IMG/VR virus record: IMGVR_UViG_3300012944_000032
Direction: 5' to 3' (one strand)
Length of the DNA stretch: 43,988 nucleotides
Origin: a virus
Shown here: positions 523-43,304 of the stretch, piece after piece
How the letters are laid out: each line of letters opens with the position of its first letter
Position numbering within the stretch: position 1 is the first letter of the stretch
Translations under genes and position numbers: made by a program
The notes under the pieces: generated by a model
What the model saw: the letters and a program-made list of their open reading frames with translations, nothing else
Told to the model about the DNA's origin: nothing
The model's database searches: none

Positions 523-1095
523 TTACTTCTTATCGAATTGCTTGCTGAATCCGGGCTTGATGAGTGCAACAGCATCTTCAAGCGGGACATTCGCACCACG
601 GGAATAGTTCCTTACAACGAGACGGAACTGAGTCTGGGCTTCAGGTGCCCAGCTAAGGTCAACGAACTCGGCCAATGGGTCAGATGCAGCCGTGTAAGCA
701 GCATCGTTGAATCCATCAATTAGGTAAGAGACGAGAGTTGGCTCATCTTTTACCGTAGTGATGTCCATGAACATCTGAATAGACGTTGGCAGAGTTTCTA
801 CCTTGCTGCGGTCGAATGCTTCCCAATCAATTACGATTGGATTCTTTCCACGAGTCTGACCAACCTGAACACGAACACCAACACCAGTTCGCTTGGCATT
901 CGTTTCATCAGCATCGACTTCACGGAGCTGCTGATTCAAATCACGAGTAACCTTCTCATCCTTTGATTCAGCAAGTTTTGCACGAATCGCAGCACGTTCC
1001 TTCTCGTAGTCTCGGACTGTGACTAATTCCTGTGGTGACGTTGCCTGTGTAGCCATTCCTGTCATTCCTTTTCCCGCGACTATCGTGCGCAGCAC
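523..1095 (-). CDS. Hypothetical early protein (190 aa from a GTG start; ATG starts at 1065 or 1056 are more likely)
   Basis: Long ORF directly downstream of a consensus sigma70 promoter. Visibly more GC-rich than the rest of the genome. No motif recognised. Confidence 0.8.
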   Translation of the reverse strand: MLRTIVAGKGMTGMATQATSPQELVTVRDYEKERAAIRAKLAESKDEKVTRDLNQQLREVDADETNAKRTGVGVRVQVGQTRGKNPIVIDWEAFDRSKVETLPTSIQMFMDITTVKDEPTLVSYLIDGFNDAAYTAASDPLAEFVDLSWAPEAQTQFRLVVRNYSRGANVPLEDAVALIKPGFSKQFDKK

Positions 1096-1125: not shown

Positions 1126-1154
1126 ATTATATCATGATTTGTGCGAAGTGTCAA
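1126..1154 (-). promoter_or_regulatory. Consensus sigma70 promoter with extended -10, reading leftward
   Basis: Minus strand reads TTGACA-cttcgcacaaatcatga(17)-TATAAT, with TGa immediately 5' of the -10. Upstream are (GCGAA)x3 and a T8 run. It is about 25-60 nt upstream of the candidate starts of 523..1095. Confidence 0.8.
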
Positions 1155-1534
1155 GCGCGAAGCGAAGCGAAAAAAAACCCAGGACCAGACTATCGTCTAG
1201 ATGCACGGCAGTTCATTCCGTGTCTCCGTTACTCTAGCTACATACTAGAGAGTGAATGATATCGCGTCACGAATAGTCCAGAGTCTAGGTATCCTCATGC
1301 TAGTCTTTTATTGCCTGTCGCGATAGACAGTAGGACTAGACTTACAGAGAACTTCCACCTAACTTTGCGAGCAATTCAGCGTATCGAACCTTGCGCCGTC
1401 GTCCCATACCCTACTACTACATGGGTCGTGCCAAGGCCCAAACCACAATATGTTGTGGTGTCAATCTGTGAAGACCCTATATGTTGGGGTGGCATATTAC
1501 CAAATTGTGATGCAACTAACGTCAATCGTAAGTT

Positions 1535-1965
1535 TGCACATTCTATCACTAAATTTCACATAAGAAATGATGTATAGTAGTGTGCAGTAGCAAGCAAAGA
1601 TGTAAATTACAATTCTAAATTGTACATTATGTCACCAGACTGCACACTTTAGCCAGTTTTGGCTCATTGTACACATTTGCATGTAATTGCACAATATTTC
1701 AATTGGCACGGCTTATGCCTATTACATATATGGTATGTGGCACATAGTTTGAACTGCATAAATCTGCACTGGCACGACTCTTGCCTTTACAGAATGACAC
1801 AGGGTTGCACTGGCATGATGTATGCTGTGTTCACTCTACTGCACATGTGCAATCCTGACTCAGCCGGTGTCATAGTGTGCAAGTCTTTCACATAGCTGCA
1901 CAATTCTTACTAAGAATTCATATCACAGGGGTATACATAGCTGCACGTAAGGTTCCATATGTGCA
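1535..1965. repeat. Dense array of TGCAC/GTGCA motifs in non-coding DNA
   Basis: At least 13 TGCAC/GTGCA occurrences counted by eye in about 430 bp. Includes the perfect palindrome TGCACATGTGCA (1840..1851), GTGCAC (about 1960), and ACATAGCTGCAC twice (1890..1901 and 1935..1946). Confidence 0.85.
1704..1826 (+). promoter_or_regulatory. Three to four GGCA-N7-TGCC dyads, equally readable as sigma54-like TGGCAC-N5-TTGC elements
   Basis: The sites are tTGGCACggcttATGCC (1704..1719), TGGCACgactcTTGCC (1770..1785, a perfect -24/-12 consensus), TGGCATgatgtATGCT (1811..1826), and a weaker TGGCACatagtTTGA (1738..1752). Confidence 0.5.
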
Positions 1966-2167: not shown

Positions 2168-2196
2168 TTGACAAACGGCTTCGCCGGGTGTATGAT
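2168..2196 (+). promoter_or_regulatory. Near-consensus sigma70 promoter for the rightward (late/structural) arm
   Basis: TTGACA(2168..2173)-aacggcttcgccgggtg(17)-TATGAT(2191..2196), about 45 nt upstream of the first plus-strand gene. Confidence 0.75.
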
Positions 2197-4764: not shown

Positions 4765-6375
4765 GTGGCTTTCACAACTGGAGAATGGAAACCTACTAGG
4801 AAACAAGAGATATTTCTATCTCTGCCATTATCAATTAAAGAAGCATTGTATGGTGGAGGAGCCGGTTCCGCCAAAACAGACGTTCTCTTAATCTACGCAT
4901 TAGTTCATAAATGGCATGAACATCCTGGGTTTAAGCAAGTGTTCATGCGTCGTACATTCCCTGAACTTCGTAATGAAGTGATTCCACGTAGTAGACAATT
5001 ATATCCTAAGTTTGGTGCAACATTAAATAAATCGGATATGGCATGGACATTCCCTGCGCCAGACCAAATTGGCGGAAGAGGATTGTCAAACGCGGGAGCA
5101 ATGATTTTCCTTGCACAGTGTGAGGACGAAAATGACGTACATAAATATGATTCTATGGAAATTAACTTATTTACTCCCGATGAGCTTACTTCTTTTCTTG
5201 AGTACATTTATTTGTACGTTGGGTTTACTCGTGTACGTACTAGTATCCCTGAACTCCCGGCAATAATTCGAGCCGCTGGCATGCCCGGTGGAGTAGGACA
5301 TACATTCACAAACAAAAGATTTGTATCACCGGCTAAGCCAGGCACTATCATTGTCGGACGTGGTGGAGTTAAACGCATTTATATTCACGCTACGTTAGCT
5401 GACAATCCTCACATCGACCCGGCCTACAGACAATCACTAGAAGCATTACCAGAAGCTGAAAAGAGAGCTAAGCTCTATGGGGACTGGAATGCTTATTCAG
5501 GTCAGGTATTTGACGAGTTCAGAGATAGAAGATATCCTGATGAACCAGATAATGCATTACATGTAATAGATGAATTTGAAATTCCAGCTTGGTGGCCTAG
5601 AATCCTCATTGGTGATTGGGGATTTGCGGCTATGACTTGGTTAGGTTGGGGAGCTATTAGTCCTAATAAAAGATTGTATATTTACAGAGAACAATCATGG
5701 ACTAAAACTAAGATTGAGGAATGGGCACCAATTGTTAGGGAATTGATTGATATTGACCATCCGAGAATGATTAAGTTTTGTAAATCTGCTGGCCAAGAGC
5801 ATGGTCAGGAACATACTATTCAGGAGCAGATTAGTGATGCTCTAGACTTCCCAATTGAGCTAACTAATAATAGTCCGGGCTCTAGAATCGCTGGCAAACA
5901 ACTAATTCATGAGTATATGAGATGGAGGTCAAAGCCAATCTCGATTAAGGAGAAAGCAGCATATAGTGAAGAGCACTCAATGTGGCTTCTTCGTAATAGA
6001 GGAATGAATGAATACAAGTCATACATGATGTCATTTATTGAGCCAGCAGAAGAATCTAATCTACCCAAGTTACAAATTTTTAGTTCCTGCAAGTTGCTCA
6101 TTGATGCTATTAAAGCATGTTCATACGACAAGAAGAAGATTGAGGATATTGCTGCATTCGCTGGTGATGACCCTATCGATGGACTTCGTTACTTGGTAGA
6201 TGCAGCAGAGAATTACTTTGAAATTGCGGCTGATGAATTCAAAAGGATTCAGAAGCAAGAAGAGTTAGTTCATAAGCTAAGCAGTGATAATGATTTTACT
6301 GCATTCTATAGACAGATGAGAACAGCTGAATCAGATGAATCATATAAACCAATTCGCATGTTTCATCATAGATAA
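4765..6375 (+). CDS. terL: Terminase large subunit
   Basis: GTG start. Walker A-like YGGGAGSAKTD. Nuclease-domain acidic motifs IGDWGF and GDDPIDGLRY. Located upstream of the portal. Confidence 0.88.
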   Translation: MAFTTGEWKPTRKQEIFLSLPLSIKEALYGGGAGSAKTDVLLIYALVHKWHEHPGFKQVFMRRTFPELRNEVIPRSRQLYPKFGATLNKSDMAWTFPAPDQIGGRGLSNAGAMIFLAQCEDENDVHKYDSMEINLFTPDELTSFLEYIYLYVGFTRVRTSIPELPAIIRAAGMPGGVGHTFTNKRFVSPAKPGTIIVGRGGVKRIYIHATLADNPHIDPAYRQSLEALPEAEKRAKLYGDWNAYSGQVFDEFRDRRYPDEPDNALHVIDEFEIPAWWPRILIGDWGFAAMTWLGWGAISPNKRLYIYREQSWTKTKIEEWAPIVRELIDIDHPRMIKFCKSAGQEHGQEHTIQEQISDALDFPIELTNNSPGSRIAGKQLIHEYMRWRSKPISIKEKAAYSEEHSMWLLRNRGMNEYKSYMMSFIEPAEESNLPKLQIFSSCKLLIDAIKACSYDKKKIEDIAAFAGDDPIDGLRYLVDAAENYFEIAADEFKRIQKQEELVHKLSSDNDFTAFYRQMRTAESDESYKPIRMFHHR

Positions 6376-42665: not shown

Positions 42666-43304
42666 CTAGAGCTTACTTTTGAATGTTAGTGCTGCCGGAT
42701 TGAATGGTGACGCTATCGCGTCAGGTTTCTTTACTTCCACCTGAACTGCTTTTGTCTCTGTTACTGGAGTGTTGAACGTAACAACCTTGAGGTTTGCTTC
42801 TGTTGCTTTACGCTCAAGATTGTTAATCATCTCCTTAACAGTCTCTTCGTCAATGCCTGCATTGAGCAATTGCATTCTCATCTTATCCATCTTGCTCATT
42901 CGTTCTTTACGAACTTTTACGGCATTGATAGCATCTGAAGTGACTACGTCTGGTCCTGAAGGAGTAATAACCCACTCCTTCTTACCTGACTTAGCTTTTC
43001 TCTCACGCAATTCATCATCGGCAGCGGCTAGAGTCGCCTTTGCTTCAAATGCAATCTGAGAGAGATTTTCTCTGTGCTCTCTTAACTGAGTTATATCCAT
43101 GTCCTTAACAAAGATTTTACCTCTGTTATAGAACTGAGCATATAACTCTTCTTGTGGTGTCATGTACCCCCAATCAATGAATATTCCACGTTTGATTGCT
43201 ACTAAACCTCGAAGATAATGACTTAACGAAGACTCCACATTGCATACTCTGCAATATATTGTTAAGTCATCATTTTCGAAATTGCAATCCTTACAGTGCC
43301 ACAT
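42666..43304 (-). CDS. Protein with an N-terminal RanBP2-type zinc finger
   Basis: WHCKDCNFENDDLTIYCRVC fits W-x-C-x2-C-x3-N-x6-C-x2-C exactly. The rest is helical and charged. Confidence 0.6.
   Translation of the reverse strand: MWHCKDCNFENDDLTIYCRVCNVESSLSHYLRGLVAIKRGIFIDWGYMTPQEELYAQFYNRGKIFVKDMDITQLREHRENLSQIAFEAKATLAAADDELRERKAKSGKKEWVITPSGPDVVTSDAINAVKVRKERMSKMDKMRMQLLNAGIDEETVKEMINNLERKATEANLKVVTFNTPVTETKAVQVEVKKPDAIASPFNPAALTFKSKL

Follow-up and report, generated by a model that had tools for sequence, protein, structure and literature searches.

The window (the whole stretch of DNA that was analysed, 43,988 bp) is a complete-looking genome of an uncultured tailed phage. A rightward gene arm, extending from 2239 to ~28,381, holds the gene for the terminase large subunit (4765-6375) together with structural genes, and a leftward arm runs from the far end back to 28,371, with an additional leftward gene at 523-1065. 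Pfam assignments for the leftward arm comprise a DUF3987 protein, a family A DNA polymerase fused to a UDG-like domain, a PD-(D/E)XK nuclease and a SNF2 helicase, with weak matches below the Pfam cut-offs to AAA_24 (RecA-like) and DUF669. A 212-aa early protein (42666-43304, minus strand) similarly shows a weak match, just below the cut-off, to the H-NS N-terminal domain (PF22470, E = 6.5e-5). No DNA-level match to cultured phages was found, the terminase being at most ~30% identical to its closest cultured-phage counterparts, and a search of 185,579 species genomes for prophage relatives returned none that was useful. No RNA family was detected by Rfam in positions 1-2600, and no tRNA in the window.

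The arms are separated by a 1.1 kb stretch (1096-2238) that is without a credible ORF and has a sigma-70 promoter at either edge (Table 1). The original prediction was that this region contains three good matches, and a weaker one, to sigma-54 -24/-12 promoters within 123 bp, and all four were found as described, at 1704, 1770, 1811 and 1738 respectively, the middle site being a perfect match to the consensus. These four elements share a strand and face the late arm, with 32-41 bp between copies and 400-530 nt from the array to the first late gene; a sigma-70 promoter does lie in between, nearer to that gene, as had been noted. The accompanying claim that all sites face the late arm holds for the four that were listed, but a fifth, left-facing element was overlooked. 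The GG-to-GC distance is exactly 10 nt (TGGCAC-N5-TTGCW) in the 1704, 1770 and 1811 elements. In the 1738 element (TTGA) and the left-facing element (ATGT) the -12 C is missing.

Table 1. Promoter-like elements and repeats in the control region of the window
Feature	Position	Strand	Remarks
Sigma-70 promoter, consensus, TTGACA-17-TATAAT	1126-1154	-	Serves leftward gene 523-1065; conserved in alignment of relatives
Left-facing sigma-54-type element TGGCACgacccATGT, GT at -12	1419-1433	-	12.5 bits; predicted start near 1407
Palindrome CCACAATATGTTGTGG	1443-1458 (weaker copy 1474-1491)		Just upstream of left-facing element
Lineage-specific repeat block (TTGCACAnTnTnTCA, TGCAC words)	1534-1701		Between divergent sigma-54-type sites
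Sigma-54-type -24/-12 element TGGCACggcttATGC(C)	1704-1718	+	16.8 bits; predicted start near 1730
Weaker element TGGCACatagtTTGA, GA replacing GC at -12	1738-1752	+	Predicted start near 1764
Perfect-consensus element TGGCACgactcTTGC(C)	1770-1784	+	20.9 bits; predicted start near 1796
Element TGGCATgatgtATGC(T)	1811-1825	+	15.8 bits; -361 from late -35; predicted start near 1837
Sigma-70 late promoter, near-consensus, TTGACA-17-TATGAT	2168-2196	+	Between array and first late gene (2239)

Two further features of the leftward side were recorded. Upstream of the leftward sigma-70 promoter there is a two-stem hairpin or palindrome at 1300-1339 (CTAGTC..CTGTC-GCGATA-GACAG..GACTAG), which shows compensatory changes in relatives, where the inner stem reads CAGTC/GACTG, GTGTC/GACAC or GCATC/GATGC and the outer stem CTAGC/GCTAG or CTTTC/GAAAG; a structured element of RNA or DNA is one possibility, a co-varying palindromic operator another. 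The gene at 523-1065 (minus strand), which adjoins the control region, is conserved, with 64-76% identity in eight relatives and 35% in the distant locus L037. Its product gave no match in Pfam, PHROG, PDB-sequence or Foldseek searches, despite a confident AF2 model (pLDDT 84), and with no sequence or fold match it cannot be named as a regulator.

Fit of the elements to sigma-54 promoters

Matches to the pattern TGGCAY-N5-WTGC number three in the 43,988 bp, both strands considered, and all of them lie at 1704-1825 on the plus strand. Shuffled sequence gave a mean of 0.51 matches, with at least three anywhere in the genome in 2 of 100 shuffles, so that the matches exceed chance. The elements were also scored with a 19-position sigma-54 matrix built from 50 curated promoters (S2 table, PMC12316311), of which EcoCyc supplied 24 from E. 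coli and RegPrecise 26 from Desulfomicrobium. Leave-one-out scores of the training promoters range from 8.9 to 22.2 bits (median 16.3), and among these real promoters the 1770, 1704 and 1811 elements fall at the 96th, 62nd and 46th percentiles. The top four matrix matches of the window (scores in Table 1) are all in the control region, the best match outside it reaching 11.6 bits (both strands, 88 kb), and the scores of the three strong sites fall inside the curated-promoter range and clearly exceed the genome background. Variants of the boxes are known from real promoters, with ATGC in fdhF, hycA, hyfA and zraP, and TTGT in pspA and pspG (PMC12316311, S2); the GT at -12 of the left-facing element is thus also that of E. 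coli pspA.

The fit extends beyond the bases by which the sites were selected. When the nine unselected positions of 30 sites from the phage family (described below) were scored under the sigma-54 matrix, the mean was +0.72 bits, compared with -2.55 ± 0.56 for random 19-mers from the same regions, and none of 20,000 samples reached the observed value (z = 5.8). Immediately after TGGCAY, G is enriched and T depleted, T is depleted again one position further on, and W follows GC as it does in real promoters. Weak secondary sigma-54 preferences are therefore present outside both boxes, and the proposed resemblance to sigma-54 promoters is borne out by promoter-like scores, by these preferences, and by boxes that are conserved while the spacer varies. 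On this evidence the boxes are probably bound by sigma-54 or its holoenzyme.

The same sites had additionally been described as GGCA/TGCC dyads, as would be expected for a dimeric regulator, and this part of the original prediction did not stand. The dyad is present in only two of the four right-facing sites, and none of the 30 family sites contains TGCCA: the two bases after TGC are TA, TT, AA or AT in 23 of them, CT in three (the only sites with a C directly after TGC) and CA in none. Since no family site continues with CA, the symmetry of the two window sites is not a conserved feature; the sites are asymmetric, and a palindromic operator of a dimeric regulator was rejected because symmetry is not conserved across orthologous sites. 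The two window sites do resemble TGGCA-N7-TGCCA operators in reading GGCA-N7-TGCC, but perfect palindromes of that type peak in bacterial contigs (offset +2, 20 pairs among the matches listed) as opposed to viral arrays. An extended -10 sigma-70 reading, for which the left-facing site offers ATGC and TATAnT, was likewise set aside, the right-facing sites being without it.

Conservation and arrangement among relatives

Relatives of the window were collected with a terminase search of IMG/VR, which gave 44 loci, and with the DNA block upstream of the late promoter, which gave more viral and metagenome contigs, the total being 27 non-redundant control regions. The block used as the search pattern behind these 27 viral and metagenome loci is TTCAAA-N3-TGAAA-N2-TTCA (2101-2120), which, like GGTTCCATA at 2059-2067, is kept upstream of the late sigma-70 promoter and is in register in all 11 regions compared. 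A small ORF spans it, and the third-codon positions are the conserved ones, for which reason the block is read as a DNA site and not as a micro-ORF. The CTTGAC box of the late promoter itself is kept in 27/27 of the loci found.

Strict matches to the sigma-54 pattern number 20 in the window plus four complete relatives; 17 of them fall within a ~350-bp zone that extends from -666 to -314 relative to the late -35, and the top five matrix matches in each of two of these relatives (G001 and G004) are all inside it. A left-facing site, YGGCAY-N5-ATG(C/T), is found at -471 to -753 in 13 non-redundant relatives, the window included, and reads YGGCAY-N5-ATGC at the equivalent place in twelve relatives. 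A right-facing site, (C/T)GGCAY-N5-WTG(C/A), is found at -295 to -384 in 11 loci with the window and ten without it. The boxes are fixed across these relatives, while each N5 spacer and most of the flanking DNA differ. The 1704 and 1770 elements, for example, align with TGGCATatgttTTG and ATCTGCACTTGGCATggttcTTGC in G004 (locus L048), the terminase of which is 59% identical to that of the window, and in both cases the spacer is different. The elements at 1811-1825 and 1419-1433 are the orthologs of the right-facing and left-facing sites, respectively, that relatives retain. The core design of the family would seem to be one left-facing and one right-facing site with lineage-specific repeat words between and around them, and the cluster in the window is most likely a tandem expansion, to four copies, of the conserved right-facing site.

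Copy number and arrangement vary around this core. G001 has four leftward copies and one rightward, plus a weak leftward TTGA copy that faces the rightward one, and G004 has two overlapping face-to-face pairs; the predicted starts in the face-to-face pairs of both genomes fall within the partner site. Relatives also carry WTGA variants of the kind seen at 1738, with the TTGA-type TGGCATatgttTTGA in L048, just upstream of TGCAT/TGCAC words, one further example in G001, and three ATGA sites in L061. In seven lineages the base at -26 is C and not T (CGGCAT), and such sites in G002 and G003 score only 11-14 bits. Both the C at -26 and the WTGA and ATGT variants, which miss the GC at -12, count against a promoter reading.

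The control region is also dense in other repeats, with 13 TGCAC words in 1535-1966; such words abut two of the sigma-54-type sites, including the 1770 element on its upstream side. The sigma-54 consensus is itself a near-repeat with 11-bp spacing, and it was considered whether the sites are a by-product of TGCAC/TTGCA words, two of which one helical turn apart would mimic TGGCAC-N5-TTGCA, or simply the product of chance. However, loci L007, L031, L064, L067, L071 and L079 are without TGCAC words and still keep the sites. Moreover, an expectation of ~4e-6 per position compares with 13 left-facing and 11 right-facing orthologous loci, and 17 of 20 genome-wide matches would have to have fallen in a single ~350-bp zone. 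This explanation is accordingly very improbable, being largely refuted by the comparison of sequences.

The repeat words themselves differ by lineage at equivalent places, the window, L047 and L048 having TGCAC or TTGCACAyTAT and the others (the L007, L031 and L064-L079 regions) GCCGCT and GTTAC/GTAAC. Because they differ in this way, the words suggest a phage DNA-binding protein of shifted specificity, and the 1534-1701 block is possibly an enhancer or a regulator array. Conversely, the sigma-54-type boxes have remained constant where these words have changed, which suggests an unchanging, host-supplied reader in preference to a co-evolving phage protein. The palindrome just upstream of the left-facing element has related sequences in most relatives, at 8-9 or 16-20 nt from TGG in the seven that were measured, distances that roughly keep helical phase. 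A regulator or a DNA-bending protein may bind there, and its CAA-N4-TTG core has a possible resemblance to the IHF core.

Two additional observations were made in relatives. Downstream of the left-facing site, at 200-480 nt, some encode a family of small, very basic ORF products (SSLYNRP...VN..R.N....LKRKLRLAS[FY]V), together with one or two more small ORFs; members lie on the minus strand of L004 (3618-3830), L007 (4306-4455), L011 (2312-2449), L031 (4311-4517) and L005 (1735-2004). The window, in which the left-facing site has GT and not GC at -12, is without these small ORFs. In a more distant relative, the G005 contig (13849-13946; L020 40-137), a divergent pair of sigma-54-type sites surrounds a 64-bp AT-rich core and forms part of a larger, imperfect inverted repeat whose arms are CT/GA-rich; the left site is 15 nt upstream of a TTGACA-17-TAGAAT promoter.

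The arrangement of the sites, clustered in both orientations amid other repeats, invites the alternative that they are operators of a well-conserved putative phage DNA-binding protein, bound as a tandem or asymmetric dimer, the bipartite site being merely sigma-54-like. Their function would be to control the divergent sigma-70 promoters, or else to serve as the mark of an origin or of a packaging site. The TGCAC words abutting two sites, the deviation of the conserved C at -26 and the WTGA variants from the sigma-54 optimum, and the conserved gene without a fold match that adjoins the region are all in keeping with this explanation, as is the G005 pair, which flanks an AT-rich core and has one site 15 nt upstream of a sigma-70 -35. 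With regard to replication-origin iterons or packaging repeats the observations point both ways, the boxes being invariant between lineages, unlike the other repeats, and the G005 pair flanking an AT-rich core. A phage operator would also have to match sigma-54 promoters by chance in both boxes, in their exact spacing and in the secondary preferences, which is improbable; the dyad is not conserved; the boxes are unchanged in lineages with altered repeat words; and the same boxes occur in arrays in many unrelated viral contigs, for which a universal host reader is a better fit. Taken together, these considerations make the operator explanation an unlikely one.

Possible roles of the arrays

Transcription dependent on sigma-54 requires an ATP-driven activator and is viewed as a tightly gated bacterial route, and the usual view of phages is that they rely on sigma-70, on sigma factors of their own or on phage-encoded polymerases. 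Use of host sigma-54 by phages is little documented. A Pfam scan of 30 window ORFs, nearly all of those of at least 200 aa, revealed no bacterial enhancer-binding protein (bEBP), sigma factor or RNA polymerase domain, in agreement with the original prediction that no enhancer-binding AAA+ protein is encoded. Similarly, neither the bEBP domain (PF00158) nor the sigma-54 DNA-binding domain was found in five complete relatives, in searches whose positive controls worked. Given that related phages keep the boxes without encoding an activator, the phage probably uses or captures host sigma-54.

The reading favoured here, to which about an even chance is given, is that the four right-facing elements are promoters for the host sigma-54 (RpoN) holoenzyme, firing toward the late arm. 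The holoenzyme would dock at the boxes as a closed complex, and since the phage is without an AAA+ activator, open-complex formation would depend on an enhancer-binding protein of the host, or else on a phage factor that has escaped recognition. Candidate enhancers are the TGCAC repeats and the CCACAA palindrome. Transcripts would then begin near the predicted starts listed for the four elements in Table 1 and extend ~400-500 nt, across conserved non-coding blocks, before reaching the late operon, such that the array might serve as a condition-gated input upstream of a constitutive-looking sigma-70 late promoter. It is doubtful, however, that the sites drive the late genes, because that near-consensus promoter lies between them and the first late gene. 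The spacing of 32-41 bp between tandem sites and the overlapping face-to-face pairs are also unusual for promoters.

These features raise the alternative that the sites form a docking array without productive transcription, where sigma-54 or its holoenzyme would be held in stable closed complexes, and the hundreds of replicated copies would titrate a scarce factor or park polymerase. As a consequence, sigma-54-dependent host responses would be shut down, or local regulation shaped. All of the sequence evidence for sigma-54 recognition applies equally to a docking array, which would also be consistent with the failure to find an activator gene, with late genes that are already served by a sigma-70 promoter, with tandem copies 32-41 bp apart, and with predicted starts that lie inside the partner site in the face-to-face pairs of G001 and G004. 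Against this, the conserved core consists of two outward-facing sites that point the same way as the flanking genes, which is promoter-like, small ORFs lie downstream of the left-facing site in relatives, and any benefit to the phage of titrating sigma-54 is hypothetical.

The arrangement of sites in unrelated contigs also bears on a docking array. Contigs with tandem pairs were compared among the matches listed, 120 of them viral (IMG/VR, L097-L216) and 120 bacterial (L217-L336). At least three sites within ~860 bp were present in 79/120 viral versus 40/120 bacterial contigs, and at least five in 32/120 versus 5/120, again among the matches listed. Opposite-strand pairs in the viral contigs, among the matches listed, are found at fixed offsets, with 49 face-to-face pairs at +18 to +20 and 35 back-to-back pairs at -22 to -25, whereas the bacterial contigs listed show only the offset of +2 that corresponds to a perfect palindrome (20 pairs) and neither viral peak. 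Fixed-offset pairs in unrelated viral contigs favour docking, although the comparison is one of statistics within matches, among those listed. On balance, the docking array is considered improbable.

A suggestion in the original prediction that sigma-54-dependent phage transcription would be rare was overstated, -24/-12 promoters of Pseudomonas phage YuA having been published (Ceyssens et al. 2008, as described in PMC10914365). The YuA record (NC_010116) has three high-activity promoter fragments annotated with the -24/-12 consensus in the structural-gene region, and the best matrix match within them is 10.6 bits. YuA and the window phage are alike in encoding a family A DNA polymerase, helicases, and an exonuclease or nuclease. 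However, the YuA sites are single, dispersed before or inside structural genes and of poor consensus, whereas those of the window are consensus-grade, clustered and restricted to the divergent control region. The phage-specific promoter motif of YuA shows only a short, CACTATAC-like likeness to the TGCAC words.

Bacterial sigma-54 promoters are another close parallel. In E. coli, hycA/hypA and zraP/zraSR are divergent promoter pairs that share a central enhancer. The phage sites resemble these in the TGGCAY-N5-WTGC pattern, in the 10 nt between GG and GC, in matrix scores within the curated range and in the secondary preferences, and the conserved outward-facing pair with repeats between is likewise reminiscent of the E. 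coli divergent pairs. They differ in that here no bEBP gene was found and no enhancer is recognisable, in the four tandem copies and, in relatives, the overlapping face-to-face pairs, and in the sigma-70 promoter that stands between array and genes in a lytic-type phage genome.

An uncultured phage family whose master control region retains consensus-grade sigma-54 sites, while no activator was found to be encoded, is an exception to the usual view of phage transcription. The implication is that phages may tie expression to the signalling state of the host, disarm sigma-54, or open sigma-54 complexes by an unknown route. Since sigma-54 recognition is conserved across bacteria, the sites could be tested with E. 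coli components. More speculatively, and at low confidence, arrays of consensus-grade sites without an activator, whether tandem, face-to-face or back-to-back, might constitute a decoy device by which sigma-54 or its holoenzyme is captured from the host and sigma-54-dependent responses are silenced, or else a platform that is opened by a new phage factor outside the AAA+ class. In either case, the four tandem copies of the window would be one instance of a widespread and undescribed strategy. The fixed-geometry pairs in unrelated viral contigs hint at something more than a single oddity.
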